Shown here in pieces: positions 6,254 to 50,651 of a stretch of 64,000 nt of DNA (positions are counted from its first letter, which is position 1; the number at the start of each line of letters is the position of its first letter). A program made the position numbers and the translations under genes. Origin of the DNA: an archaeon (GTDB lineage Archaea > Nanobdellota > Nanobdellia > Pacearchaeales > GW2011-AR1); assembly GCA_024278335.1 (NCBI GenBank), contig JAJRTJ010000001.1, positions 26,481 to 90,480 of the forward strand, written 5' to 3'. A model generated the notes under the pieces. That model worked only from the letters and a program-made list of their open reading frames with translations, was not told the DNA's origin and ran no database searches.

Positions 6254-6297
6254 TTGTGATTTTTATATGAATTAGCTTAAGGTTGCAAACAAAATCT

Positions 6298-6852
6298 TTA
6301 ATACAGCTCCACTGTGCGAATACCTCTTTCTATGCTCGTAGGAGAAATTAATTCCTTTAATCTTCCCTTCATAAGATTAAAACCCTCCTTTCCAAAAATT
6401 ATCTTTTTTTCAACAAGATGGTAATATGTAAATTCTCTTGGAAATTCATCTCTTAACCTAAAATTAGGGGCTTCCACCGCCCCCCTTTTATGCCGGGGAT
6501 TTTCAACCCATGGCAGGATTCTTTCCCCCCTCAAATAAGTCAATAAATCTCTTGGAGTGGAGCGATTATTTAAACAAAGGGGAAAATAAACTCTTTTACA
6601 ATGTCTACCCAATCTATCTGAAATATTCTCCCACACAATAACAATCTTCCTTGATTCTTCTTCAGGATTAGCAACAAGTCTTTTATAAGCTTCTTCTCTT
6701 TCACTTATGGACAAATCTTCTTTAATATTTGGAGGAACAAACTCTTTTCTAATTCTTTTTATTCTTCTTTTTCCTTCGTATAAATCAATCCCTGGAGCAT
6801 CTAACCTCCTTGGTTTGTTTTTACTTTTTGTTGTTCTTTGAGCAAGATTCAT
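6298..6852 (-). CDS. Hypothetical protein
   Basis: Track ORF 6298..6927. The more likely start is ATG 6852 (MNLAQRTTK...), because the first 25 codons overlap the tail of the upstream TrmB-like reading frame. No family recognised. Confidence 0.45.
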   Translation of the reverse strand: MNLAQRTTKSKNKPRRLDAPGIDLYEGKRRIKRIRKEFVPPNIKEDLSISEREEAYKRLVANPEEESRKIVIVWENISDRLGRHCKRVYFPLCLNNRSTPRDLLTYLRGERILPWVENPRHKRGAVEAPNFRLRDEFPREFTYYHLVEKKIIFGKEGFNLMKGRLKELISPTSIERGIRTVELY

Positions 6853-6892
6853 AAAAATAAGGCAGAATATTTGATTTAAAAAGATTTCTTTT

Positions 6893-7609
6893 CTAACTTT
6901 TTTTCGCAACTTTCCACAATAACTCAAAATATTTTTTATATCCTTCGCTGACTTCTGAATTTTTAATTACAATCACAAAAGGATTTTCTTTGCTCCACAA
7001 GATTATTGCAACTTTTTCTCCATAAATATTTACTGCAAGAGGGGAGGCGTATTTTTGAGGAAGAAATTTTATTTATGATAAAGGGATTTTGGGAGTTTTC
7101 TTTGCTCTTTGATTGAAGATTATTCTTGTTTTAATTTTTCTTTTTTTCCTCTTTTCATCAAACCATTTAAAATAAAATTGCAATACTTCATGAGCCAGAG
7201 GAGAAGCCCCTAAAATTAAAATTTCTTCCCCAGTTTCAATCTGGTCTTCAAAAACAGTTTTTAACCCAAGTTTCCCTCTGTAAAAGTTAGTCTCTTCTTT
7301 TTTCTTAACTTGCTCATAATTTAAAAGCATCTCCGGCATAATTTCTTCTAATTTTTTTTCTTTTTCTTTTATGATTTCCATAAATCTTTTTGGATTTGCT
7401 GCTTTGAAGATTTTTCTTCTATTTTTTAAAATATATCCTACTAATCCTTTTTTAATAAGCATTTCAATACTATCATAAACAGTTCTGCGATGAAGTCCTG
7501 TTTTTTGAGAAATAATTCCTGCTAAACATGGTCCTTGGGTGAGCAAGGCAGAGTAAACTTTTGCCTCGTTTTTTGTAAGACCAAATTCAATTAAAATCAC
7601 TTCTTTCAT
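6893..7609 (-). pseudogene. TrmB-family transcriptional regulator interrupted by an in-frame TAA (7073-7075); the homologous reading frame continues to TAG at 6893-6895
   Basis: N-terminal wHTH: FGLTKNEAKVYSALLTQGPCLAGIISQKTGLHRRTVYDSIEMLIKKGLV. After the stop the same frame reads IKFLPQKYASPLAVNIYGEKVAIILWSKENPFVIVIKNSEVSEGYKKYFELLWKVAKKS*. This looks like the end of a TrmB C-terminal domain, for a total of 238 codons. Confidence 0.65.
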
Positions 7610-9589: not shown

Positions 9590-10390
9590 TCACTGGTTGT
9601 CATGACAAAAAGTTTCAGAATTGTTTTTGATATTAATCGTCTTGATTGCATCTTTAATTGGATTCGGAGACTCATAAATAACAACAATGGATTTATTTTT
9701 TGGAAGTTCTTTCAATAATCTTTTTATTTCTTTTTCTTCTGTTGCAAGATGTCTTTTCTCTCCTTTTTTTCCATATTCAATTCCAGAAAAATGCACATGC
9801 CAATCTTTATATTGCTTAAAAACTTTTTTTACTTCCTTAAAATTATATGTTTTATATCTTGCAATCATATGTGCAAAGTCAATGCAAAAACTGCACCGAG
9901 TGTCTCTGACAAGTTGTGCTATCTCATTTAGGCTTCCAAATACATTAGCTTTTCCAATAATCTCTGGAGCAAGTTTGGGGGTGTATTTGTTCTTTTTAAT
10001 TTCTTCTTGCATCTCTAAAATTCCTTTTTTAATGCTTTCATAAGTTTCTTTTTTTGAAAACTTTCCATAATAACCGCAATGAAAAACAACTTTTTTTGCT
10101 CCAAGCCAAGTTCCAACTTCACAAGACCTTAAAATTCTCTTTTTGCTTGCTTTAATTTTTTCTTTATCCTTAGAATTAAGATTAATCCAGTAAGGCGCAT
10201 GGATTGTAAGAGAAATATTAAATTTTTCTGCAGCCTTCTTAACTTTCTCTGCAACTTCTTTTGATTTAATAAAAACTCCGTAAGTAAAGGAGATTTCTGC
10301 AGCTTGTATTCCCAGCTCCTTGTATCTTGCAAAAGTTTCTTCAACATCTTTCACAGAACCAATTCCTGCAGGACCTATTTTTATTGCCAT
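9590..10390 (-). CDS. nfo: AP endonuclease family 2 (endonuclease IV-like, TIM barrel)
   Basis: IHAPYWINLNS (compare HxxYLINL of Nfo), then VVFHCGYYG, CIDFAHM, HVHFSG and YESPNP, spaced like the metal ligands of endonuclease IV. Confidence 0.7.
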   Translation of the reverse strand: MAIKIGPAGIGSVKDVEETFARYKELGIQAAEISFTYGVFIKSKEVAEKVKKAAEKFNISLTIHAPYWINLNSKDKEKIKASKKRILRSCEVGTWLGAKKVVFHCGYYGKFSKKETYESIKKGILEMQEEIKKNKYTPKLAPEIIGKANVFGSLNEIAQLVRDTRCSFCIDFAHMIARYKTYNFKEVKKVFKQYKDWHVHFSGIEYGKKGEKRHLATEEKEIKRLLKELPKNKSIVVIYESPNPIKDAIKTINIKNNSETFCHDNQ

Positions 10391-10415
10391 GAATTTAAAA
10401 AAAGAAACTCCTTTT

Positions 10416-10883
10416 TTATATCTTCTTCAACTCCTCACCAATTTCTCCAAGATTATCAACAAGATATGTGTGAAGTTTTTGAATTATTTGATTCTGAATT
10501 TCTTCTCTTAACTCTCCATGGCATTTTGTTAAATCTATCTCTGGATTCCTCCTGTTCCCATAATTAAGAGAACAAATCATCTCCTTATTTTCAAGAACTT
10601 TCATTTTAATATCCCCTTTTTTGATATGAAGCAAGGTTACTTCTATATCGCACTTATTTTCATTTTTGCCAAGAATTTTGTAGACCCATGTTTTTTCTGG
10701 ACCATCATTGATAAATTTTGCCTTTCTGCATTTTTCTTGATGAGCAACATAGCAAGACATATTATCGCATTTAGGAAAATAATACCATGTAAAGTAAACT
10801 GCTAAAAATAATACAATTATAATTGAAATAAGAATCACCCATCTAAAAATTTTACCTCTTTCTGCCATATTATAAATCGTCAA
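10416..10883 (-). CDS. Hypothetical membrane-anchored protein
   Basis: Single N-terminal TM segment (WVILISIIIVLFLAVYFTWYYF) followed by a Cys-containing soluble domain. Confidence 0.4.
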   Translation of the reverse strand: MTIYNMAERGKIFRWVILISIIIVLFLAVYFTWYYFPKCDNMSCYVAHQEKCRKAKFINDGPEKTWVYKILGKNENKCDIEVTLLHIKKGDIKMKVLENKEMICSLNYGNRRNPEIDLTKCHGELREEIQNQIIQKLHTYLVDNLGEIGEELKKI

Positions 10884-32088: not shown

Positions 32089-34533
32089 TTAAATCTTTTT
32101 CCTTCTCAATAAATTAGCATTTGTTACAACACTAATTGAAGATGTGGCCATAGCTATTTCAGCAATAACTGGATGTAAAATTCCAATTACTGCCAAAGGC
32201 ATAGCAATAATATTGTATGAAAACGCCCAGAATAAATTTTGTTTTATTTTAGAAAAAGTTGCCTTTGATAAGTTAATGGCTTTAACAACTCCTTCCAAAG
32301 ACCCTTTTGTTAAAATAATGTCTCCAGATTCAATTGCAATATCTGTCCCTGTGCCCATTGCTATTCCAACATTTGACTGCTTTAATGCAGGAGCATCATT
32401 AATCCCATCCCCGACAAAAGCAACAAATCCTTTTCTTTGCAGTTCTTCAACCTTTTTTGATTTTTCTCCAGGTAAAACATTTGAAACAACTTCATCAATA
32501 CCAACTTCTTTTGCAATTGCTTTTGCAGTTCGTTCATTATCTCCAGTAATCATGACGGTCTTGTATCCTTTTTCATTAAGTTTTGCTATTGCTGAAACAG
32601 AGTCTTCTTTCACAGAATCAGCAATGCCAATAATACCAATTGCTTTTCTATTTTCAGCAACAATTATTGTAGTATTTCCATTGTTTTCAAATTCTTCTAT
32701 TTTTTTGTTAAATTCCTTTAATTGAACTCCTCTTTCTTTCATTAACGCATTATTGCCAATAATAATTTCTTTTACCCCTATTTTTCCTTCCACCCCCCTG
32801 CCCCTTAAAATCCTGAAATTTTTTACTTTCTTGTATCTTTTTAAATTTGCTTTTTTAACAACTGCTTTTGACAGCGGATGCTCAGATAATTTTTCCAAAC
32901 TTCCTGCTATTTCTAAAAGATACTTTTCACTAACATTTGCTTTAATTTCTCTGACCTCTGGCTTTCCTTTTGTAATTGTTCCGGTCTTGTCAAAAATAAT
33001 TGTTTTAACATCTTTCATGGTTTGAATTGCCTCTCCTTTTCTGATTAAAATTCCGTTTTTTGCTCCAATTCCAGAGCCAACCATTAAGGCAGTAGGAGTG
33101 GCAAGTCCCAGAGCACAAGGGCAGGCAATAACAAGAACAGCAATTGAAGCAAATAGAGCAAGTGCAATTGTTCCTACATTAAGATTAATCCACGGCAAAA
33201 AGTCAAAAAACCCTGCAATACTCTGCATAAAATTTGGAAAAATAATCCATGCAAAAAAAGTTAAGATTGCAATTACAATGACTGCAGGAACAAAATAAGA
33301 AGTTATATTGTCGGCAAATTCTTGGATTGGAACTTTGCTTCCCTGAGCTTCTTCAACAAGCTTAATAATATTTGATAAAAAAGTATCTTTTCCTATTTTT
33401 GTTGCCTTGACATACAAAATCCCGTCTTGATTAATTGTAGCCCCAATAACTTTGTTATTTTTCTTTTTATCAACAGGCAGACTCTCTCCAGTAACCATTG
33501 ATTCATCAACTGCACTTTCTCCTCTAACAATAATTCCATCAGTAGGAATTTTTTCTCCGGGCTTTATAATCATAATGTCACCCACCCTAACTTCAGAAAT
33601 AGGAACTTCAATTTCCTCTTTATTCCTAATAATTACTGCTTTTTTTGCTCCCAACTCAAGAAGCTTTTTGATTTCTTGGCTTGCCTTTCCCCTTGCTAAT
33701 GCTTCAACATATCTTCCTGTTAAATGAAATCCCATAATCATGCTTGCAATAGCTGCATAATTTTCAATAGGGAGAAAGAACTTAATTATCCCGCTCAAAA
33801 AAGCAATAAAAGTTCCGAGAACAATTAAAAAATCCATGTTAAATGAGAAATACTTTGCTGACTTGATTCCAGAAACATAGGTATGCCATCCAAAAATAAA
33901 CAAAACCGGAATTGCAGCTAAGATAAATATTACATCAATATAAGGAATCTTAATTAAACCAAACATATCTACCAGCATTAAAATTGCAATTGGAAGTGCA
34001 AAAGCCCATGCACCATACATTCTTTTTTTTGCTTCATTCATCTCCTTTATTTCTGCATCTTCATGCTCTTCCCCCTCTTCTCCCAAAACTTTGTATCCTG
34101 CATCTTCAATTGCCTTTTCAATATCTTCTTTTTTGCCGCTATAAATAACTTTTGCTTTATGAGAATTAATATTTAATTCAACATTTTTAGTTCCTTTAAC
34201 AGTTTTAATTGCCTTTTCAACTGTCTTAGCACAATGAGGATTATCTAACCCCTGAACAATAAAAATTGTTTTTTTTGTTGAGTTTTCTCCTTCATCCTCT
34301 AAAGTAGCTTTGTAATCTCCAACATCTGAAACTGCCTTGATAATGTCTGAACTTTTTGCATCTCCTTCAACATAAAGCTTTTTCATTCCAAAATTTATTC
34401 TGGCACTTTCTACGCCCTTTACTTTTTTGACAAATTTTTCAATATTATTTGCACAGCTGACACAGGACATGCCTTCAATTTTATATCTTTTTTTATTTAC
34501 TCCCATCTTTATAATAGTTGAAAAGTTAATCAA
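32089..34533 (-). CDS. copA: Copper-translocating P1B-type ATPase with two N-terminal HMA domains
   Basis: GMSCVSCA (HMA 1), a second degenerate HMA, TGES, CPC (ACPCALGLATP), DKTGT and GDGINDAP. Confidence 0.9.
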   Translation of the reverse strand: MINFSTIIKMGVNKKRYKIEGMSCVSCANNIEKFVKKVKGVESARINFGMKKLYVEGDAKSSDIIKAVSDVGDYKATLEDEGENSTKKTIFIVQGLDNPHCAKTVEKAIKTVKGTKNVELNINSHKAKVIYSGKKEDIEKAIEDAGYKVLGEEGEEHEDAEIKEMNEAKKRMYGAWAFALPIAILMLVDMFGLIKIPYIDVIFILAAIPVLFIFGWHTYVSGIKSAKYFSFNMDFLIVLGTFIAFLSGIIKFFLPIENYAAIASMIMGFHLTGRYVEALARGKASQEIKKLLELGAKKAVIIRNKEEIEVPISEVRVGDIMIIKPGEKIPTDGIIVRGESAVDESMVTGESLPVDKKKNNKVIGATINQDGILYVKATKIGKDTFLSNIIKLVEEAQGSKVPIQEFADNITSYFVPAVIVIAILTFFAWIIFPNFMQSIAGFFDFLPWINLNVGTIALALFASIAVLVIACPCALGLATPTALMVGSGIGAKNGILIRKGEAIQTMKDVKTIIFDKTGTITKGKPEVREIKANVSEKYLLEIAGSLEKLSEHPLSKAVVKKANLKRYKKVKNFRILRGRGVEGKIGVKEIIIGNNALMKERGVQLKEFNKKIEEFENNGNTTIIVAENRKAIGIIGIADSVKEDSVSAIAKLNEKGYKTVMITGDNERTAKAIAKEVGIDEVVSNVLPGEKSKKVEELQRKGFVAFVGDGINDAPALKQSNVGIAMGTGTDIAIESGDIILTKGSLEGVVKAINLSKATFSKIKQNLFWAFSYNIIAMPLAVIGILHPVIAEIAMATSSISVVTNANLLRRKKI

Positions 34534-34559
34534 CTATTTAAATGCTTTGTTTTTTAATC

Positions 34560-37295: not shown

Positions 37296-37607
37296 TCAAA
37301 TTCCTCCTTTTGATTTTTTATTTTTGAAGTGTTTAATGGCGTCTTTAAGCACACACCAGCAAAAATTCCCAGACAAAGAATAATATTTCTCTCTCCCTTT
37401 TTTTTCATAATTAATTATATTTAAACTATCCAATAATTTTAATTGATGTGACACTGCAGAAAGGGTTATATTTTCTTTTAGGTCTTTGTGAATTTGGTTT
37501 ACTGTTTTATCTCCCTCTACCAATAATGAAATTATTTGAAGTCTTGTTTCATCTGCTAATGCAGAAAAAAATCCGGTTAATCTCTTGTTTAATTTTTTAC
37601 TTTTCAT
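37296..37607 (-). CDS. ArsR/SmtB-family metalloregulator
   Basis: LADETRLQIISLL...VNQIHKDLK...LSAVSHQLKLL wHTH. Confidence 0.85.
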   Translation of the reverse strand: MKSKKLNKRLTGFFSALADETRLQIISLLVEGDKTVNQIHKDLKENITLSAVSHQLKLLDSLNIINYEKKGREKYYSLSGNFCWCVLKDAIKHFKNKKSKGGI

Positions 37608-37645
37608 AAAATTTAATAGTTGAACAACTATTTAAATGTTTCTAT

Positions 37646-38143
37646 CTACTTTATCTCACATGTTTCACATTTATTTAGACTCTTTATTGTAAGATATGTT
37701 GCTATGATAAGAATAATTATTGATAAAACTCTTAACTCCATCCCTTTATACGGAAAATACATTAATGCTAAAGGCGACCCTATTAATCCAAAAAGAACTG
37801 CTCCGCAAGTAGGGCACCCTGCTCCAAATGCCCCCACAAGTGCTCCAACAAATCCAAAAAAGCCAAAAGAGTTTTTCCTTAATTTTTTGCTTGCTTCATA
37901 TTTATAGATAATAACACTTAGATAAATTCCAAATAAAGCAGAGATTATAGCAAAGCTAAGAAGGCTAAAATAAGTAAAATTATATCCTGACATCATAATA
38001 TAAATTTTCAGGCTGTTGTCAGCAATTTTGGCTACAGTCAGCTGATAAAAAATAATGAATGAAATTATTGCAGTAATCAAACTAATATAAACATACTTTT
38101 TGTTTTTGTAGATTCTTTTTAGTGTTTCAAACATTTTATTCAT
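37646..38143 (-). CDS. 4-TM membrane protein with intramembrane CPTC and C-terminal CETCE
   Basis: GALVGAFGAGCPTCGAVLFGLIGSP lies in a predicted TM segment; the sequence ends ...NKCETCEIK. Confidence 0.55.
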   Translation of the reverse strand: MNKMFETLKRIYKNKKYVYISLITAIISFIIFYQLTVAKIADNSLKIYIMMSGYNFTYFSLLSFAIISALFGIYLSVIIYKYEASKKLRKNSFGFFGFVGALVGAFGAGCPTCGAVLFGLIGSPLALMYFPYKGMELRVLSIIILIIATYLTIKSLNKCETCEIK

Positions 38144-38387: not shown

Positions 38388-38656
38388 TTAGATTTTCCTG
38401 TATCTTGATAATATTTTAAACAATACAAGGTATTTTGGTGGTGGCTTAGATGCTCTTTCCAAGATTTGACATTTGTTTCATATTCAGGAAGCCGGCAGTC
38501 TTCTGGAATATTTTCTGCACGATATTTTTCTAATTCTGGATTTTTTACTTCAACCACACTTTTCCCGCTGATTTTTAAATATCCTGCAAACAAGCTTCCG
38601 ATTAATAAAAACACAAATATTCCTGCACTTGCATAAGTTATTTTTTTATTTTTCAT
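38384..38656 (-). CDS. Small membrane-anchored protein, paralog B (PEDCRLPEYE...YCLKYY)
   Basis: 90 aa with an N-terminal TM. Tandem paralog with a 4-nt ATGA overlap to the next gene. Confidence 0.55.
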   Translation of the reverse strand: MKNKKITYASAGIFVFLLIGSLFAGYLKISGKSVVEVKNPELEKYRAENIPEDCRLPEYETNVKSWKEHLSHHQNTLYCLKYYQDTGKSK

Positions 38657-39089
38657 TTTTTGATTTATGTTTTTTTACTTGATAATAAATAATTGCAATT
38701 CCAAGAGCATTTGATATTATCCCAAACCAGAGAAAATAAGGTATGTATTTTGTTAAAATCATTAATCCGGAAAATCCAACCAGTGCTCCTAAAAAAGGAA
38801 GTATGTTTATTAGATAGTGGCTGCAGCAGAGAATCATGCTGAATGTAGAAATTCCTCCAGAAGCAATAGTTGTTGAACAGCTAAGAGCATTTAAACTTTT
38901 AAAATAAACAAACAATCCCACCTGAAGGCCGAATCCTCCAATAAGAAGAATTAATAAAATAAAGTATCTTTTAATAATTTCAACAGCCATTAAAGGAAAC
39001 CCAAGCAAAGATAAAACAATTAAATTAACAAGTAAGACTCCGATTACTGCAAGGCCTCCCCATAACACTGCTTTTATTTTTAAATCCAT
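38646..39089 (-). CDS. 4-TM membrane protein with SCS and CCSHY motifs
   Basis: 147 aa, hydrophobic throughout, with ...NALSCSTTIASGG...SMILCCSHYLINILPF. Confidence 0.5.
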   Translation of the reverse strand: MDLKIKAVLWGGLAVIGVLLVNLIVLSLLGFPLMAVEIIKRYFILLILLIGGFGLQVGLFVYFKSLNALSCSTTIASGGISTFSMILCCSHYLINILPFLGALVGFSGLMILTKYIPYFLWFGIISNALGIAIIYYQVKKHKSKNEK

Positions 39090-40144
39090 TTTCCTTCTTG
39101 GTATTTTTGCTTAGTTGCCTTTAAGTTTCTAAATATAAATGCCCCATCATTTTCAATTGTTCCAATTTGATTGAGAAGTTTTTTCATTCCAAAATAATCA
39201 TTAATTTCTTTAGACAAAATAATTGTAGGTATTGAAGTAATATTATATTTTTTAATTAATAATCTTCCTGCAGAATCAGACAAGTCAATTTTCTCTTCAC
39301 TTCCAATATATACTCCCAATTGTTTAAATGCATTTCCTAGCTCTGCAGGATTAAAACAATCTTCACAGCTTTGGTTGATTAAATAAGTTGCTTTTACTTT
39401 TCCTTTAATCTCCTTTGTATTTAAATCAAAGTAAGGATAAACTTTATTTGTAAAAAGCAAATAGTCTTTTTTCTCTTCAATATTTCCACCAATTGCCTTT
39501 GTTATCCACCAATACTCTTTAAATTCTTTATCTGTAAGTAAAGCTGGAAGAGATTGTATATTATTTTCTTTAATTAATTTTTTTCCTTGTTCAGAGTTTG
39601 AATCCAAGAATAGGAGGTTCTCCTTTTTCATTCCTGCTTCTTCTAATTGTTTTATAAAAGAAAAATAACTCTCGCATTCACTGCATGAACTTTCTTGTAT
39701 TTCAATTAAGTTTACAAATCCTCTTTTCTCTTCAGTAAAAAGGTCTATATATGGAACCCCGCCTTCAAATAAAATATAATCTTTTTTAATTAAGACCTGG
39801 TTTTTTTCAAAAATTTTAAGACTTATCTTTTCAATATCTCTTGATTTAATTATTAATGCAGGAATCTTTCTTACATTGTATTTTTTTATTAATTCCTGTC
39901 CTTTTTTTGATTGGTAATCCACTTCTTGCGTGTCTTTAAAATAAATGTCTTGCTCTTTTATTAGCTTAGGAATTAATTCATTCATATCAAAACAATCTCC
40001 ACATCCAGTTAAAAGAATTATTTCTGCACTCTCTTGTTTTTCATAAAAAAATTGAAAACCAAGTGACAAAATTAAAATTCCTGTCATTACTGCAATAATT
40101 AAAGTCAATGCATCTTCGTCATAAATAATTTTTTTAAATTTCAT
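39080..40144 (-). CDS. Membrane-anchored protein with three tandem thioredoxin-like CxxC modules
   Basis: N-terminal TM, then three repeats: LLTGCGDCFD...KKYNVRKIPALII, ESSCSECESY...ENNIQSLPALLL and NQSCEDCFNP...KKYNITSIPTIIL. Confidence 0.6.
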   Translation of the reverse strand: MKFKKIIYDEDALTLIIAVMTGILILSLGFQFFYEKQESAEIILLTGCGDCFDMNELIPKLIKEQDIYFKDTQEVDYQSKKGQELIKKYNVRKIPALIIKSRDIEKISLKIFEKNQVLIKKDYILFEGGVPYIDLFTEEKRGFVNLIEIQESSCSECESYFSFIKQLEEAGMKKENLLFLDSNSEQGKKLIKENNIQSLPALLTDKEFKEYWWITKAIGGNIEEKKDYLLFTNKVYPYFDLNTKEIKGKVKATYLINQSCEDCFNPAELGNAFKQLGVYIGSEEKIDLSDSAGRLLIKKYNITSIPTIILSKEINDYFGMKKLLNQIGTIENDGAFIFRNLKATKQKYQEGKWI

Positions 40145-40626
40145 TCTTTACAGCAGTCTAATAATTTTTTAATTGATTCAGAGATTTTAGACAATTTTGA
40201 TTCTGCAATATTGCCTTTTTTTGATAGGCTGTTGCCTCCAACCCCATTTATTGTCCAGAACAGGCTATAAAGATTAAATGAGTCATAAAACATTTCTTCA
40301 GCTTCTTCTTTTTTTCCAGAATGCAGAGATTTTATTCCAACTTCAAACAATCTCATTGATGTTGCCAAAAGATGTTTGCTGATACACCATTTTTCACTTC
40401 CATCATCTTTTTTCACTATTTTTGCAAGAAGTTTTTTTCTAAGCTCTCTTGTTTGTTCTAAAAAATCAAGAAATTTTCTTTCATTTGTTTTTAAAAAACT
40501 AAATAAAAAATGCTCTTCTAAGGAAATAAGATTCATCAATCCAATGCTCAAGTCTTCCCCAATAGAAAGGTCTAATTTGTTTTCGTTTTTTATCTTGTCA
40601 ATAAATTGTTTTAATTCCTTTTTCAT
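40141..40626 (-). CDS. Hypothetical soluble helical protein
   Basis: 161 aa with no TM segment. Both ends overlap neighbouring genes by 4 nt. Confidence 0.45.
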   Translation of the reverse strand: MKKELKQFIDKIKNENKLDLSIGEDLSIGLMNLISLEEHFLFSFLKTNERKFLDFLEQTRELRKKLLAKIVKKDDGSEKWCISKHLLATSMRLFEVGIKSLHSGKKEEAEEMFYDSFNLYSLFWTINGVGGNSLSKKGNIAESKLSKISESIKKLLDCCKE

Positions 40627-41147
40627 TTAAAAATCACCTGCAAAATAATTCCTATAATTAAAAGAAGGGAAAAGGTAATTATAATTCCTTGATAAGGAAT
40701 ACCTTTTCCTCCACGTTTTTCTTTTATTTTTTTATTTAATGAAGGGGAGATTAATGTGATGATTCCTCCGAGAAAACTGCTTGCTAAGGAATAATTAAAA
40801 GCATATGTTGTTCCGTATTCCCCTAAAAAAGGAATGTAAAGAGGGCCAATTGCTCTAAAAATTGGTAATAAAGGAAGAATTGTTGAAAAAAACACTATGA
40901 AAATGATAATTGAATTTTGAAATGGGAAGTATTTCTTCTTTATTATTCTTGAAAACCACATTCCCATTGACATTGCAAATGCCCCAATAAACAAGCCTAT
41001 AACGACTTTGCTTACTCCAAGCCACGCGGCTCCTGCAGCCGCAGCACCTGCTCCAATTGTGCAAAGAGGGCAATGCGCGCTGACAAACTCTGCTAAAGAA
41101 ATAATTAATCCTCCAAATAAAAAACTAAGTTGAGCTTTTTTTATCAT
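40623..41147 (-). CDS. Polytopic membrane protein with N-terminal HCPLC motif
   Basis: ...AEFVSAHCPLCTIGAGAAAAGAAWLG... followed by further TM segments. Confidence 0.5.
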   Translation of the reverse strand: MIKKAQLSFLFGGLIISLAEFVSAHCPLCTIGAGAAAAGAAWLGVSKVVIGLFIGAFAMSMGMWFSRIIKKKYFPFQNSIIIFIVFFSTILPLLPIFRAIGPLYIPFLGEYGTTYAFNYSLASSFLGGIITLISPSLNKKIKEKRGGKGIPYQGIIITFSLLLIIGIILQVIFK

Positions 41148-41148
41148 C

Positions 41149-41628
41149 TTAAACTTGCATGAATTCCCAAGAAGAGCCGTCTTTATTTACTGCATAAACT
41201 GTAAACTTTCCATATTTTTGTCCAGGCATTCCCGGAGAGCCAGAAGGCATTCCAGGAAGAGCTATGCCTGCAATATCTGGCTTCTCTTTCAATAATTTTT
41301 CAACTGCTTCAAGTGGAACATGCCCTTCAACAAAATAATCTCCAATAATTGTTGTATGACAGCTTGTTAGTCCCGTAGGAACCCCGTATTTTTCCTTTAT
41401 TGAATTAATATCCTGAGAAACAATTATCTTTGCATTTGAATTTCCTTTGCTTTTAAAATAGCTCCCATATATTCCGCAACATCCACAGCTTGAGGATTTG
41501 TAAATTTCAATTTTTCCATCAAAATTTTTTATTTCAGCAAATTCATTTGCTTTTAAGTTTTGAAAAATTAAAAAGCCTCCTAAGAGAAGTAAAGCTAATC
41601 CTAAGAGGTAAATTTTTTTCTTTATCAT
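41149..41628 (-). CDS. CopG/DUF411-like metal-binding protein (signal-anchored)
   Basis: SSSCGCCGIY (CxCC), LTSCHTTIIGDYFVEGHVP and GIALPGMPSGSPGMPG match the DUF411 pattern. Confidence 0.75.
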   Translation of the reverse strand: MIKKKIYLLGLALLLLGGFLIFQNLKANEFAEIKNFDGKIEIYKSSSCGCCGIYGSYFKSKGNSNAKIIVSQDINSIKEKYGVPTGLTSCHTTIIGDYFVEGHVPLEAVEKLLKEKPDIAGIALPGMPSGSPGMPGQKYGKFTVYAVNKDGSSWEFMQV

Positions 41629-41653: not shown

Positions 41654-41926
41654 TTAACACCCGCCAACCATGCCGCCATAACTGCTTTGTGCAGCTTGAC
41701 TTGCGCTTTTAGCAGCAGAAATTGAAGAAGCACTTGAGCTTCCGTCTCCACTGAAAAAGAGGACATATAAGACTGCTATTGCCAAAAGTGCAATCACCCC
41801 CCACAAAATAAATGTTTTCAAATCTCCTTTCATTTTACCTCCTTTTGAATCAATTTCTCCAAATTGTTCCTGATGTTCTTCATTGTTTATTTTTTCTCTT
41901 TTTTCTCCACCACAGCATCCACTCAT
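41654..41926 (-). CDS. Single-TM protein with N-terminal MSGCCGG and C-terminal GGMVGGC
   Basis: Start placed at ATG 41926, 1 nt after the upstream stop. The sequence has a TM segment, a Ser/Ala-rich linker and ends ...SSYGGMVGGC*. Confidence 0.55.
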   Translation of the reverse strand: MSGCCGGEKREKINNEEHQEQFGEIDSKGGKMKGDLKTFILWGVIALLAIAVLYVLFFSGDGSSSASSISAAKSASQAAQSSYGGMVGGC

Positions 41927-41927
41927 T

Positions 41928-42563
41928 TTAACATCCTCCAACCATTCCTCCTCCAGAGGATCGGCCTCTTTCTATTCCTCTATACTTATTGCTTGCAAGA
42001 TTGATATAATTCACTTCTATTCCCTTTTCCTTTAAAGCACGCGCTTTTTGTTCATGTATTCCAGGAAAAAATAATACTTTCCATTTTCCCATTTCTGCCA
42101 AAATTTCTTCATCACTAAACTCCTCCCCATGATTTAAGATTAAATATTTTGCAAGTCCTCTCATAGCATAACTATGAGCGCATCCGCATGCAGGTCTGCC
42201 GTCACTGAATATAACTGATTTTGCTCCACAGCAATATTCACAAGAAATTTTGCTTGCAATTGAAATATATCTTTCTAAATCTGCCCCAGTCAAAGTCAAG
42301 GTTCTGTCTAAATTTGCCATAACTGAAATTGTTTCATCTGCTAAACGAGGGTTTGCAGCACTAACCCCGTCATAAGAAATTCCTAATTCTTGTCCATAAA
42401 TTTTTGGAGTTCCTGAAGGAATTATTTCTGAAGCAGAAACAGTTTGAATCCCTGTTGAAAAATCTTCTGTAGCACTTTTCCCAATTCCATACATCAAAAG
42501 CCCTACAAGGACAACTATTGTTGCCATTTGAATGAAGAAAGTTGTCTCTTTTTTGTTTTCCAT
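41928..42563 (-). CDS. Signal-anchored Cys-rich protein (PCYCGC-like) ending in GGGMVGGC
   Basis: ISCEYCCGAKSVIFSDGRPACGCAHSYAMRGL, with C-terminus ...RGRSSGGGMVGGC*. Confidence 0.55.
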   Translation of the reverse strand: MENKKETTFFIQMATIVVLVGLLMYGIGKSATEDFSTGIQTVSASEIIPSGTPKIYGQELGISYDGVSAANPRLADETISVMANLDRTLTLTGADLERYISIASKISCEYCCGAKSVIFSDGRPACGCAHSYAMRGLAKYLILNHGEEFSDEEILAEMGKWKVLFFPGIHEQKARALKEKGIEVNYINLASNKYRGIERGRSSGGGMVGGC

Positions 42564-42704
42564 TTTATAACTGAAAAATCAAAGAATCTCCCTTATAAAT
42601 GACTTGTTAAAATAAAATCAAGAATTACCTTTCACAAGCTTTAAAAACCATCTTTAAACCCTTAAAAAGGAAAACAATAAAAACCTCTCTTTCTCATTTT
42701 TAGT

Positions 42705-45970: not shown

Positions 45971-46270
45971 TTATCCAGTTATTTTGTAAAGAATAAATAA
46001 AAGCAATAAGACACTAATTCCAAAAATAATCCAAGCAATAATGTTTTTTTTGTTTATCTCCTTATTTTTTTTATTTTCTACTCCATAACCTTCATTTTTT
46101 ATAATTTGTTCAATTTCTTTTGCAGAGATTTTTTCAGGATAAAATTCAATTTCTGCTGTTTCTTTTGCAAAATTAATGGAAATGTTCTTAACCTTGTCTT
46201 TTAGCGCATCTTCAATTTTTTGTGCACAGGAATTGCAAGTCATTCCCTGAATCATAAAACTCTTTTTCAT
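45971..46270 (-). CDS. Heavy-metal-associated (HMA) domain protein with C-terminal TM
   Basis: MIQGMTCNSCAQKIEDAL (GMTCxxC) followed by the TM segment IIAWIIFGISVLLLLFILY. Confidence 0.8.
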   Translation of the reverse strand: MKKSFMIQGMTCNSCAQKIEDALKDKVKNISINFAKETAEIEFYPEKISAKEIEQIIKNEGYGVENKKNKEINKKNIIAWIIFGISVLLLLFILYKITG

Positions 46271-46318: not shown

Positions 46319-46972
46319 TCATCTACTCCTCCCAACACCAACTTTCTTACAATATTTCTTAACAGGACACTTTGAACACCAAGGAGAAATCGGTTGACAA
46401 GTCCCTCTTCCAAATTGAACAAAGATTGCATTAAACTCCCCCCAATATTTTTTAGGCAAGATTTTTATCAATTCCTCCTCGGTCTTTTCTGCTGTTTTTG
46501 TTTTAACCCATCCTAATCTATTTGGAATCCTATGGCAGTGAGTATCAACAGGAATCACACATTCTCCAAAAGCAAAAGCCAAAACAATGTTTGCAGTTTT
46601 TGGTCCAATTCCTTTAATAGACATAAGATTCTCACGGGTCTTTGGAACTTTCCCATCAAATCTTTTCAAAAGTTCTTGAGAAACATGCTTTAGTGTCTGG
46701 GCTTTTTTCTTATAATGTCCTGAGGAAAAAATCAACTTTTCCAATTTTTTTGTTGAAAGAGCAAGGATTTTTTCTGGAGTATCTGCAACTTCAAAAAGTT
46801 GTTTTGAAACTTTTTCAGTGTTTTCATCCCGAGCCCTAAGAGAAAGCAAACATGCAATAAGAACTTTAAAAGCATCTGGACGCTTTCGCATACGATTCAA
46901 AGTTGTGTTTGAACTAGAAGTATATTTTTTAGACAAAATTTTCATCACAGGGGTTATTGTTTTGTTTTTCAT
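46319..46972 (-). CDS. nth: Endonuclease III (HhH-GPD DNA glycosylase with 4Fe-4S cluster)
   Basis: LMSIKGIGPKTANIVL, VDTHCHRIPNRLG and CQPISPWCSKCPVKKYC. Confidence 0.9.
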   Translation of the reverse strand: MKNKTITPVMKILSKKYTSSSNTTLNRMRKRPDAFKVLIACLLSLRARDENTEKVSKQLFEVADTPEKILALSTKKLEKLIFSSGHYKKKAQTLKHVSQELLKRFDGKVPKTRENLMSIKGIGPKTANIVLAFAFGECVIPVDTHCHRIPNRLGWVKTKTAEKTEEELIKILPKKYWGEFNAIFVQFGRGTCQPISPWCSKCPVKKYCKKVGVGRSR

Positions 46973-47439
46973 TATTTCAAAACAACAATATTATTCATTC
47001 CCCTTCTTTTTCTTTCAATAATCTGTTTTGCCTCCAGCTTATCAAGTAAGCGAGTCATTCCAACTTTGCCTATTCCTAATTTCTCTGCAATATCTGCCTG
47101 AAACATCCCCCCTTCTTTTTGCAGCATTTTAACAACTGTTTTTTCATTTTTATCTAATTGACTTAAATCAATTAAGTCTTTCTTTGATTTTTCTCTGATT
47201 TTCTTGATAATAATTTTCTCCTTTGGTTTTGTATTCATAATCATTATTCCAATAATAATTATCACTGCAACAACAGCAAAACTTACCCATGTCTGTATTT
47301 TAATTGTGTCATACATTGTGCATTGGTGTGTGCAAGTTGTCCCAACAATTTTTCTAAGAGAATAATTAAAAATCCAAACAATAAAGCCCATAACAATTCC
47401 AATTCCTATAATCAATCCCCCAACATGTTTATTTTCCAT
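46972..47439 (-). CDS. Membrane-anchored MarR-like winged-helix protein
   Basis: Two N-terminal TM segments, then ...MFQADIAEKLGIGKVGMTRLLDKLEAKQIIERKRRG. Confidence 0.5.
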   Translation of the reverse strand: MENKHVGGLIIGIGIVMGFIVWIFNYSLRKIVGTTCTHQCTMYDTIKIQTWVSFAVVAVIIIIGIMIMNTKPKEKIIIKKIREKSKKDLIDLSQLDKNEKTVVKMLQKEGGMFQADIAEKLGIGKVGMTRLLDKLEAKQIIERKRRGMNNIVVLK

Positions 47440-48190: not shown

Positions 48191-48522
48191 TTAAACAAAG
48201 TTAATAAAAAAGCAGTATTTTCTTTTGCCTTTAATGAATGAAGCGCATTTGCATTCATGTAAATAAATACTCCTGGCTTCATCTTAATTTCCTCTCCTTC
48301 TAATTTAAAAATTCCTTCTCCTTCTAAAACATAGACTGTTCCAGCTTTTGTAGAAGTATGGTCGCCAATTTCTTTTCCAGAAGCCATGCAAAACAAAGTA
48401 ACATCTACTTCATCATTTTTCAGAACCTCTTTTGATAAAATTCCCCCTTCGGGATATTCAATCATGTCTATTATTTGTCGATTCATTTTACTTAGATTTA
48501 CCTCCTTTTTGATTCTCTTCAT
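48187..48522 (-). CDS. Cupin domain protein
   Basis: 111 aa with GDHTS...GTVYVLEGEG...HSL, a cupin-like pattern. Confidence 0.55.
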   Translation of the reverse strand: MKRIKKEVNLSKMNRQIIDMIEYPEGGILSKEVLKNDEVDVTLFCMASGKEIGDHTSTKAGTVYVLEGEGIFKLEGEEIKMKPGVFIYMNANALHSLKAKENTAFLLTLFK

Positions 48523-48895
48523 AATTTTTAATTGCTTTTTTGAGAGCTTGAATTCCCAAGATAGAGCAGTGGATTTTTATTGGGGGCATTCCTCCAAGTT
48601 TTTTTACAATATCATTTTTTGAAATCTTTTTTGCCTTTGCTAAAGTTCTCCCTTTTGCTAATTCACAAACAACATCAGATGTAGCAATAGCAGCTCCGCA
48701 CCCAAAAGTCTGAAATCCAATATCTGAAATCTCGTGGTTTTTAACTTTAATTTCAAGATGCATAATGTCCCCGCATTTCATATTTCCAACTTCTCCAACT
48801 GCATCAGGTTTTTTTAATCTCTTCACAAATTTTGGATTTGTAAATCGTTTCATTAATTTTTTTGAATATAATGTGTTGGTTTTCATTTCTCCCAC
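48488..48895 (-). CDS. iscU: IscU/NifU-like Fe-S cluster scaffold
   Basis: GNMKCGD, FGCGAAIATS and HCSILG, giving three conserved Cys. Confidence 0.85.
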   Translation of the reverse strand: MGEMKTNTLYSKKLMKRFTNPKFVKRLKKPDAVGEVGNMKCGDIMHLEIKVKNHEISDIGFQTFGCGAAIATSDVVCELAKGRTLAKAKKISKNDIVKKLGGMPPIKIHCSILGIQALKKAIKNYEENQKGGKSK

Positions 48896-49293
48896 ACCTC
48901 TGAATCTCTTGCTCCTTTCTTTTTTTCTTTAAACTTAAATCCAAACTTTTTGTAAAGTTTTCTTGAAGGATAGTCTTTTTTTCGAACACCAACAAGTAGT
49001 ATTTTCTTTCCTGCAATCTTTTCCGTTTTTTTTAATAAATCCCAAGCAATGCCCTTTCTTTGATATTTAGGAAGAACATATAAATCACAAATGCAAAGAG
49101 AATTTTTTTCAGACAAGAACATTAAATAAGCAATAATTTTTCTTCTCTCTTCTACAACTAAAGTATTTTCTATAAGTTTAGAATATTGCTTCTCCCACTC
49201 AACAACACTTTTTGGAGACCCTCTAGAATAAAGCCCCCTAACTAATTTCATTGTCTCTTCCCTATCTTGCAATGTTGCATAGTGTATTTTCAT
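48883..49293 (-). CDS. GNAT family N-acetyltransferase
   Basis: YVLPKYQRKGIAWDLLKK (Q/RxxGxG/A acetyl-CoA motif). Confidence 0.75.
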   Translation of the reverse strand: MKIHYATLQDREETMKLVRGLYSRGSPKSVVEWEKQYSKLIENTLVVEERRKIIAYLMFLSEKNSLCICDLYVLPKYQRKGIAWDLLKKTEKIAGKKILLVGVRKKDYPSRKLYKKFGFKFKEKKKGARDSEVWEK

Positions 49294-49490
49294 TCTTTAT
49301 TCAACTCCTTAACAATCTTTTCAACTTCTTTTTTTGACAAACCATGCCCTAAACAACCTTGTTCAAGAGTTTCCTCTTGTGCCATTGGACAATAAACACA
49401 GCCCATACCAACCTCCATTAAAACTTCTATGCCTTTCTCCCCTTTTTCTTCAAGGATTTTCCCTATTTTTGTGTTCTTTGTTATTTTCAT
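49290..49490 (-). CDS. DUF1858 / redox-disulfide small protein
   Basis: 66 aa with GMGCVYCPMAQEETLEQG, typical of DUF1858 as I recall it. Confidence 0.65.
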   Translation of the reverse strand: MKITKNTKIGKILEEKGEKGIEVLMEVGMGCVYCPMAQEETLEQGCLGHGLSKKEVEKIVKELNKE

Positions 49491-49493
49491 TTT

Positions 49494-50651
49494 CTAAGCC
49501 AACGGACTAATCTTCCGCAACCTCTCAACGGCTTTTTTAATTTTTTCAAGTGCATAATCAATCTCTTCTTTTGTTGTATATTTGCTGATTGAAATTCTTA
49601 CAGAAGAGTTTGCCTCTAAAGGAGTCTTACCCAAAGCAAGTAAAACATGGCTTGGTTCAAGATTGTGAGATGAGCACGCAGAACCAACAGAAGTAAAAAT
49701 TCCCTCAACATTCAAAAAGCTTCCAACAGATTCAGCTTCAATATTATTAAAACAAACATTAATGTTATTGCACAGTCTGTTTTTCCCATCTGCTCCATTT
49801 AGATTAACTTTAGGAATTTTCAAGAGTTCTTTAATAAAATAATCTCTTAACTTATACATAACTTTTACTTCTCTTGGAGAAGCAATTTTAATCGCTTTTG
49901 CAAAGCCAGCAATTCCAGCAACATTTTCCGTAGAGCTTCTCAACCCAAATTCATGCCCCCCGCCATGAAGCAACGGAGTAATACTAATCCCCTCCCTGAT
50001 ATACAAAGCTCCGACTCCTTTTGGTCCGTGAATCTTATGTGCATTTAAAGTCATTAAATCAATAAACTGCTTTTTTACATTAATTGCAACTTTTGTAAAA
50101 CTCTGGCAAGCATCTGTATGAAATAAAACTCCTTTTTCTCTGCAGATTTTGCCGATTTTCTCCAAATCCTGAATTGTCCCAATTTCATTGTTTCCGTGAA
50201 TAACAGAAACTAAAAAAGTCTTGTCTGTAATTGCAACCTCAATATCTTTAGGATTCACAAAACCATATGCATCAACATCAAGGTAAGTTATTTCTGCCCC
50301 CTGGCTTTCAATCCATTTGCAGGCATTTAAAATACAATCATGCTCAATCTTTGTTGTGATTATATGGTTCTTTCCTTTGTCTTTCATTTCAAAAAATAAT
50401 CCCTTAACTGCTGTGTTGTTGGCTTCTGTTCCAGAACCAGTAAAAATAATTTCCTTGTATTTTGCACCAATTGATTTAGCAACAATCTCCCGAGATTCTT
50501 CAATTGCTCTTCGCGCAGCCTCCCCCTTTAAATGAGTTGAAGAGGCATTTCCATATTCTTCTGTCTGATACTTCTCCATCACTTCTGCAACTTTTTCATC
50601 TACTTTTGTCGTTGCTGCATTATCTAAATATATTTCTTTCATCATACGCAA
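49494..50651 (-). CDS. nifS: Cysteine desulfurase (NifS/IscS class V aminotransferase)
   Basis: YLDNAATT, the HKIHGPKG PLP-lysine region, and the active-site loop SVGSACSS. Confidence 0.9.
   Translation of the reverse strand: MRMMKEIYLDNAATTKVDEKVAEVMEKYQTEEYGNASSTHLKGEAARRAIEESREIVAKSIGAKYKEIIFTGSGTEANNTAVKGLFFEMKDKGKNHIITTKIEHDCILNACKWIESQGAEITYLDVDAYGFVNPKDIEVAITDKTFLVSVIHGNNEIGTIQDLEKIGKICREKGVLFHTDACQSFTKVAINVKKQFIDLMTLNAHKIHGPKGVGALYIREGISITPLLHGGGHEFGLRSSTENVAGIAGFAKAIKIASPREVKVMYKLRDYFIKELLKIPKVNLNGADGKNRLCNNINVCFNNIEAESVGSFLNVEGIFTSVGSACSSHNLEPSHVLLALGKTPLEANSSVRISISKYTTKEEIDYALEKIKKAVERLRKISPLA

Follow-up and report, generated by a model that had tools for sequence, protein, structure and literature searches.

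Several described systems pass soft metals between proteins by exchange of thiol ligands: MerP, MerT and MerA, Atx1/CopZ with the HMA domains of CopA, and Ctr1 with its C-terminal HCH. In MerA a flexible C-terminal Cys pair feeds the active site. ScsBCD and CcdA/TlpA with ScoI are envelope reductant systems which serve copper proteins. SoxY, a soluble beta-sandwich protein paired with SoxZ, carries sulfur on the single reactive Cys of a GGCGG arm. CopG, or CutG (DUF411), is a periplasmic copper-resistance protein of thioredoxin fold, which holds a tetranuclear cluster of Cu by way of CxCC and contributes to copper resistance (PMC7558416). We analyzed two adjacent genes, called here A and B, in a stretch of 64,000 nucleotides (the window) from contig JAJRTJ010000001.1 of a Pacearchaeales archaeon. 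Their products end in the same peptide, Met-Val-Gly-Gly-Cys (MVGGC), in which Met is replaced by Gln in some lineages; the [M/Q]VGGC ending is called the tail below. We give an even chance to A and B being the core of an extracytoplasmic relay for copper or a thiophilic metal, with tethered arms that end in Cys. The cassette to which they belong would work like the soft-metal thiol relays yet belongs to none of them.

Genes A (41928-42563, 211 amino acids) and B (41654-41926, 90 amino acids) are open reading frames of the minus strand, separated by 1 nt between the stop of A and the ATG of B, in a source genome of 575 kb (32% G+C, four contigs, 83% complete). A putative archaeal TATA box, TTTATAA, proposed from sequence alone, lies on the same strand at 42593-42599, some 30 nt upstream of the A start codon. 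Protein A is predicted to have an N-terminal transmembrane (TM) anchor followed by an extracytoplasmic helical domain. It carries two motifs, CEYCCG (C108, C111, C112) and ACGCAHS (C126, C128, H130), whose Cys and His columns are invariant in the alignment of the A family. Protein B is an "arm-only" protein: a predicted cytoplasmic N-terminus MSGCCGG, one TM helix, a Ser/Ala-rich linker and then the tail. That B opens with MSGCCGG on the other side of its TM helix had been proposed from the sequence alone (the sequence-only reading); the reading frame bears this out, and the bias in Lys and Arg puts the N-terminus inside. The 3' end of A reads GGA GGA GGA ATG GTT GGA GGA TGT TAA (peptide GGGMVGGC; tail codons at 41931-41945, stop at 41928-41930) and that of B reads GGC GGC ATG GTT GGC GGG TGT TAA (peptide SSYGGMVGGC; tail codons at 41657-41671, stop at 41654-41656). 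Both genes thus share GGMVGGC followed by a stop, with all four Gly codons differing between them, in agreement with the earlier remark that the same peptide is encoded by different codons. Endings of the MVGGC type are found in A and B and nowhere else among the 5098 open reading frames of at least 40 amino acids of the source genome.

The likeness to the soft-metal relays lies in Cys residues on flexible termini or loops, which in those relays hand Cu(I) or Hg(II) between proteins, and in the neighbouring membrane proteins of the cassette, which carry Cys pairs on both membrane faces. The cassette differs by its single terminal Cys, its invariant pentapeptide and its dedicated arm-only proteins, and it has no MerP, MerT or HMA homology, no GMxCxxC and no MerA; A and B have no match to the HMA/CopZ family (PF00403, GMxCxxC). 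CopG, whose closely spaced Cys and Met hold copper outside the cytoplasm, resembles what is proposed for A. It has no terminal Cys arm, however, and A has CxxCC...CGCxH on a predicted fold that is mainly helical; neither A nor B matches PF04214, the family matched by their neighbour at 41149-41628 (E = 2e-25). In ScsBCD and CcdA/TlpA-ScoI, and likewise in the cassette, genes of DsbD/CcdA-type membrane proteins and of thioredoxin-like proteins accompany those of envelope proteins that bind copper through Cys, or in the cassette would do so; those systems are built of CxxC thioredoxin folds throughout, and none is known to have a C-terminal Cys pentapeptide or an A-like domain. With SoxY the likeness is one of principle only: an invariant Gly-rich C-terminus which offers one reactive Cys, on a flexible tether outside the cytoplasm, to partner proteins. 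SoxY differs by its sulfur cargo, its soluble beta-sandwich and its SoxZ partner, and the Sox system is not known to have arm-only partners; A is a helical, TM-anchored Cys5-His domain with Cys as its last residue and no sox genes around it. The comparison with the SoxY arm made in the sequence-only reading therefore does not extend to kinship: there is no match to SoxY or SoxZ (none in Pfam or NCBIfam for 24 A members at E <= 10, none in a Foldseek search of the PDB below E = 1), the Cys of [M/Q]VGGC is followed by the stop codon and that of SoxY by Gly-Gly, and no sox families (SoxZ, soxAX/B/CD) occur among the conserved neighbours.

Other families were considered for A and rejected. CcmH/NrfF (PF03918), a three-helix domain with LRCxxC, was found neither in the 24 members (E <= 10) nor among the Foldseek PDB matches nor by hmmsearch against the PDB. 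For PCYCGC (PF13798) there is no Pfam match, and hhalign of the A profile against PCYCGC proteins of the same loci aligned the TM helix only, with a probability of 5%. Separate genes of the PCYCGC family recur in the same islands (L003, 10621-11028; L034, 4356-4805; L042, 2328-2738; L054, 8800-9159; L086, 5480-5986), once directly upstream of A; the literature search on this family returned only a lipoproteome survey. In lipobox lipoproteins, of the bacterial Lgt/Lsp or the archaeal AliA/AliB type, the Cys comes immediately behind an N-terminal signal peptide; the tail proteins differ, their Cys being C-terminal, 13-62 residues past the TM anchor, and PF01889 was not found in the 83%-complete genome. 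For CaaX prenylation the Cys stands fourth from the C-terminus, and the enzymes needed are a prenyltransferase, a CaaX protease and ICMT; in A and B the gene-encoded Cys is terminal, and a search for PF04140 found it neither in the genome nor in the 80 loci described below.

The tail was then followed through the A family. At least 2284 homologues of A are present in a large protein collection; all of the best 120, for which tails were tabulated (61-72% identity), end in MVG[G/A/E]C, and those with names are Pacearchaeota or Nanoarchaeota. A profile of A searched against 1.84 billion representatives gave 298 clusters. Tails were read in the 150 listed representatives (50% identity), and 124 of them have a terminal Cys with the consensus (L)P-x-[M/Q]-V-G-[G/S/A/D/E]-C, the other 26 being mostly fragments, with a few carrying a short extension past the Cys. 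A bacterial-type subfamily ending in EFPEFLPQMVGGC keeps MVG[G/D]C in all of its 118 members; the names in it are Paceibacterales (Candidate Phyla Radiation, CPR), Anaerolineae, Bipolaricaulia and Hodarchaeales, and A-type relatives are present in CPR and other bacteria. The database search for further C-termini of this type that the sequence-only reading had called for thus returned hundreds of relatives, kept across archaea and bacteria. For B, eight homologues of 51-81 amino acids were detectable; all end in [Y/A]GMVGGC, and five start with an N-terminal CC motif (e.g. MDCC, MTCC).

At the DNA level, the pattern MVGGC-stop is present in 88 of 401 genomes of the phylum (a reversed-pattern control gave 1 match), and about 75 of these 88 hold two to four copies, mostly clustered on one strand. 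The cassette is accessory in the phylum, being present in 5 of the 28 genomes of the window's own family. Among 80 genomes negative for the tail pattern, a single one has an A homologue, and that homologue ends in IVGEC; the tail therefore belongs to A and is a hallmark of the family. The IVGEC protein (locus L107, G199:C5, 1513-2118) is a divergent A with a DUF7343 regulator upstream and no B partner, and marks the outer limit of tail variation, Cys still being the last residue. Pfam and NCBIfam hold no family for A or B, nor for any of the 24 A members at E <= 10, and nothing relevant to the MVGGC motif was found in the literature searched. The [M/Q]VGGC tail is a simple and specific marker, which can be annotated now; the window has the features by which we propose to recognize this family, namely an A with CxxCC...CGCxH and an MVGGC end, and an adjoining B on the same strand.

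The pairing of A with small tail proteins is nearly general. A is encoded in 241 species-representative genomes, and 80 archaeal loci were analyzed. In 78 of them, between one and three small open reading frames (43-149 amino acids, single TM helix) ending in MVGGC come after A on its own strand. In locus L023 both A and its small neighbour end in MVGDC, which brings the paired layout to 79 of 80 loci; in the remaining one (L079) the contig stops 12 nt after A. Partnerless A genes were found in three bacterial loci, L081, L105 and L106, and one archaeal locus, L102. The small tail proteins adjoining A in the 80 loci number 109, all single-pass, with a variable leash of 13-62 residues, rich in Ser, Gly and Ala, after the TM helix. 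About 30 of them carry GWTxxExMxYEMHG, two carry EEMMARMHP, and 21 have a cytoplasmic N-terminal Cys motif resembling MSGCCGG. Lys and Arg are richer before than after the TM helix in 73 A proteins versus 2 with the reverse, and in 82 small proteins versus 10. This enrichment indicates an N-in, C-out topology for both types of protein, and with it an extracytoplasmic position is predicted for the tails of A and B, as had been proposed for both termini.

Codon usage in 184 tails shows on what level the motif is kept. Met is always ATG; Val is encoded by GTT, GTC, GTA and GTG (77, 47, 36 and 24 cases), both Gly positions use all four codons, Cys is TGT or TGC (113 and 71), and the stop is TAA, TAG or TGA (128, 29 and 27). 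Between the A and B tails, synonymous differences amount to 2.30 of 4 sites within a locus and 2.58 between loci. The scrambled codons and the use of all three stops argue that the peptide is under selection, that the stop is real and that gene conversion is not the cause of the identity; the earlier suggestion of selection on the peptide rather than recently duplicated DNA is thereby borne out, and the comparison of differences within and between loci led to the rejection of gene conversion as the source of the tail identity.

A and B tails change together. At residue -5, Met or Gln, the two proteins agree in 88 of 88 loci (77 M/M and 11 Q/Q). An A ending in QVGGC has a small neighbour ending in QVGGC in L084-L086, in L100, L101, L103 and L104, and in four genomes of the phylum scan. 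Genome G139 holds two cassettes on different contigs (C3:53592-53824 and C6:21751-22009; loci L090/L097): in one of them A and B both end in MVGGC, in the other both end in QVGGC. On a tree of the A domain (185 sequences, tail excluded from the alignment) the tail type of A switches at least 17 times. At least five M/Q switches concern loci in which the type of B is known; all are concordant, and three are on supported branches.

Structure prediction offers a view of the tail on its domain. The AlphaFold2 model of the window A is mainly helical, with a mean predicted local distance difference test score (pLDDT) of 85, and a second AlphaFold model, of a 259-residue homologue from the GC-rich relative L082, has a mean of 82. 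In the L082 model the tail block 251-259 (SLPNMVGGC) reaches a pLDDT of 89, versus 62-75 in the preceding linker. A free tail would be expected to score low, and the model suggests that the tail docks onto the A domain. The idea of a flexible Cys-tipped arm fits the linkers, which are Ser/Gly/Ala-rich and 13-62 residues long. Neither AlphaFold2 model has a Foldseek match in the PDB below E = 1, and a profile search of PDB sequences with the A family gave no match.

Tabulating the neighbourhoods of the tail proteins over the 80 loci, as the sequence-only reading had proposed, brought out a conserved copper/thiol gene cluster (upstream of A, 1.2 kb or more of sequence is available in 69 loci, and downstream about 60 have enough). 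The conserved order is a membrane regulator of the DUF7343/MarR type (59 loci, median -0.6 kb), A, then B. In relatives these regulators have a Cys/His/Met loop. The regulator of the window (46972-47439, minus strand; PF24034, PF01047) is a membrane-bound winged-helix protein with two TM helices, joined by a predicted extracytoplasmic loop which carries CTHQCTM. Most relatives have this gene directly upstream of A, whereas in the window the distance is 4.4 kb. Outside the loci of Nanoarchaeota type it is replaced by a BlaI-like protein with an M48/M56 protein, a BlaR1-like sensor pair: in L084, L086, L101, L103 and L104 a BlaI/CopY-family repressor (PF03965) and an M48/M56 membrane protease stand next to A.

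Downstream, the next gene of the operon after B (41149-41628, minus strand) encodes the exported DUF411/CopG-like protein, with CGCC (CxCC) and a GMPSGSPGMPG stretch; such a gene is found downstream of A and B in 49 loci. DUF411 is present in 40 of 80 tail-positive and 0 of 80 tail-negative genomes of the phylum (p = 2.5e-15), often less than 1 kb from the tails, and within the sampled phylum genomes DUF411/CopG was found only in those with the tail. Cupredoxin, CopA and HMA genes lie further downstream in relatives, whose loci also encode Met-rich proteins. Near A, 17 loci have DsbA-like genes, and L082 encodes a fusion of a DUF411-like domain with a membrane domain of CcdA type. The window itself holds further copper or metal genes: a CopA-type ATPase with two HMA domains, a CDF transporter, DUF302, ArsR regulators, an HMA protein and a DsbD_2-cupredoxin protein (PF00403 matches at 45971-46270 and 32089-34506).

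The rest of the operon is likewise on the minus strand. The gene at 40623-41147 encodes a multi-pass membrane protein of 174 amino acids with a signal-like N-terminus followed by HCPLC; its family is represented in 51 loci, with a median distance of +1.6 kb from A. Its N-terminus reads ...FVSA and then HCPLCT; cleavage there would give a mature protein starting with His-Cys-x-x-Cys, a possible N-terminal metal site. At 40141-40626 is a helical soluble protein of 161 amino acids ending ...LLDCCKE, with relatives in 25 loci; in another 25 a membrane protein of 146 amino acids ending ECCKKW holds a similar position. Vicinal Cys near the C-terminus recur in the cassette (...LLDCCKE here, ...LEDCC in L082 at 10265-10732, ...VECCKKW in the 146-residue family), so that terminal Cys motifs return across the operon. 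A membrane-anchored protein with thioredoxin-like modules follows (39080-40144; Thioredoxin_3, Thioredoxin; family in 11 loci), then a membrane protein of 147 amino acids with CCSH in a TM helix (38646-39089; no Pfam match; 41 loci, median +2.8 kb). After two mini-proteins, the same-strand run that starts at 42563 ends at 37646 with a membrane protein of 165 amino acids, with CPTC in a TM helix (37646-38143; family in 20 loci). Pfam and NCBIfam scans gave no family for the HCxLC, CCSH, ECC or mini-protein neighbours.

Two further features of the window were noted. The upstream regions of copA (34507-34559) and of an ArsR gene (37608-37645, the gene being at 37296-37607) have a common palindrome, ATAGTTGA...TCAACTAT, beside TTTAAATG; the palindrome is probably an operator of ArsR type which serves both genes. 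No copy of it was found upstream of A, and the promoter of A and copA share no operator in the window. The window also has cysteine desulfurase and NifU-like genes, some kb upstream of A (48488-50645, minus strand). They are found upstream in 19 and 12 of the 80 loci, respectively, and together with Rrf2 in the CPR locus L105 (855-2997); this proximity may be a coincidence of small genomes or may reflect a shared thiol/metal regulon.

In the bacterial loci the surroundings of A are of another kind. A is flanked in L081, L105 and L106 by two to three DUF1573 proteins with SC[G/A/M]CT, and no small tail protein is present (DUF1573/thiol-redox flanks at 7075-7377 in L081, 5953-7232 and 9566-10195 in L105, and 5692-6934 and 9056-9637 in L106). 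In one of these DUF1573 proteins the N-terminal part includes a CPCCG...CCG block. Bacterial loci also encode a TlpA-like thioredoxin and CcdA near A. At the end of the cluster of L106 (9639-10262) is a methyltransferase of the ICMT/PEMT family.

The sequence-only reading had left the cargo of the terminal Cys as sulfur or a metal. The copper gene context favours a metal as the best supported of the two; sulfur finds no sox context. In the relay proposed here, A would be a membrane-anchored receptor domain with a Cys5-His cluster, its C-terminus forming a flexible leash whose [M/Q]VGGC-COOH end docks back on the domain. Proteins of the B type would be extra arms, each made of anchor, leash and pentapeptide, to which some add Met/His motifs or a cytoplasmic CC motif. 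The terminal thiolate, aided by the Met or Gln side chain and by the free carboxylate, could capture Cu(I) near the membrane; exchange of ligands would then bring Cu(I) to the A cluster, from where CopG/DUF411 and the CxxC membrane proteins would receive it, or the transfer would run in reverse. Thioredoxin-like and CcdA/DsbD-type proteins would keep the thiols reduced, and the operon would be switched on by the membrane-embedded sensor-regulator. The identity of the metal, the direction of its transfer and the docking in trans of the B tail on A are what we infer here.

Several points weigh against such a copper relay. Gene context is the sole basis on which we infer a role in copper handling, and DUF411 is missing from half of the tail-positive genomes. 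A stands without B in L081, L105 and L106, and its neighbours in L105 and L106 are thiol-redox proteins with no obvious copper genes. A simple metal site is less likely than a motif for recognition or modification to keep Val-Gly-Gly, which offers no ligand, so strictly invariant, and the Gln found in place of Met in some lineages binds Cu(I) poorly. The tails of A and B can differ at position -2, where MVGAC or MIGSC in A stands beside MVGGC in B. The M/Q concordance amounts to three well-supported independent contrasts (sign test, p = 0.25), and after correction for phylogeny the M/Q residue shows no significant covariation with any column of the A domain, the raw associations vanishing in phylogenetically independent contrasts. 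As to docking, the tail of the window A has a pLDDT of 66-69.

It is possible, though we hold it tentatively, that the cassette is a new envelope machinery of ultra-small archaea working on a carrier-arm principle not described before: a receptor, A, and genes encoding an anchor, a leash and a five-residue "plug". The plug would change together with the receptor's own tail; several tethered terminal Cys would insert into a pocket of A, in turn or together, and the cargo which the arms build up or pass on would be either a multinuclear Cu-thiolate cluster or a group carried covalently. The A domain, with its CxxCC...CGCxH cluster of five Cys and a His, might as part of the same proposal be a new fold, as far as the models go.

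Other explanations start from the same observations. The thioredoxin-like and DsbD_2/CcdA proteins of the window and of relatives, the L082 fusion, the DsbA-like genes and the CPR loci that place A with a TlpA-like thioredoxin and CcdA would all fit a thiol-disulfide relay, in which the terminal Cys of A and B form mixed disulfides between CcdA/DsbD-type and thioredoxin-like proteins on one side and envelope substrates on the other. Reducing or oxidising equivalents would be shuttled, and copper tolerance would be indirect, as in Scs or TlpA systems. We regard this as unlikely, since the arm has a single Cys and no resolving partner, and the Met/His motifs of the small proteins, the genomic link with DUF411 and the CopA, HMA and cupredoxin neighbours indicate a metal; the reductase modules are equally expected as helpers which keep metal-binding thiols reduced. 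SoxY-like transport of sulfane sulfur between envelope enzymes, with a persulfide on the terminal Cys, has a very low probability in our judgement. A Gly-Gly-Cys on a flexible leash is conceptually near the SoxY GGCGG arm, and the cysteine desulfurase and NifU-like genes upstream of A, in L105 as in the archaeal loci, would be in line with it; IscS/IscU are cytoplasmic housekeeping proteins, however, and the tails are predicted outside the cell, A has no SoxY or SoxZ match, and no sox, dsr or rhodanese families occur among the conserved neighbours.

The tail could also be a tag for covalent modification or anchoring, an enzyme recognizing [M/Q]VGGC-COOH and modifying the terminal Cys, be it with a lipid in thioether linkage, by methyl esterification of the carboxyl group or through cross-linking to the S-layer or a host cell, which would fix the C-terminus in place. 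Five residues are invariant, Val-Gly-Gly included, and the tail resembles the lipobox, whose pattern is [LVI][ASTVI][GAS]C. A and B also share residue -5, as expected with a common recogniser, and an ICMT-family gene adjoins the cluster in the bacterial locus L106, ICMT enzymes acting on modified C-terminal cysteines. We nevertheless consider this quite improbable, and the lipidation or processing signal suggested in the sequence-only reading loses ground accordingly: the tail is confined to A and its small partners, with no diverse cargo, and the operon has no conserved enzyme-like family or transferase. ICMT (PF04140) was found neither in the 80 loci nor in the 83%-complete source genome, and AliA/AliB (PF01889) was not found in that genome, control genomes giving matches. 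The proteins are already anchored by a TM helix, the L082 model suggests docking of the tail on A itself, and the M pair and Q pair of G139 argue for an operon-specific partner over a cell-wide enzyme. Chance, mis-called stops, recent duplication or gene conversion have a negligible probability as the origin of the shared ending: all three stop codons follow the Cys, synonymous sites are scrambled, the reversed-pattern control gave its single match, and the motif is kept across archaea and bacteria.

Although DPANN archaea and CPR bacteria are abundant, most of them have not been cultured, and hardly anything is known about the biology of their envelopes. The cassette is an operon of unannotated families, and the conservation of its C-terminal motif is in our experience among the strictest outside sorting signals. 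If the tail is instead a site of modification, it would be a new C-terminal protein tag. If the copper arm is right, it would mean a new strategy for dealing with a toxic metal at the surface of a cell with a single membrane, and would give a function to more than 2000 "hypothetical" proteins.

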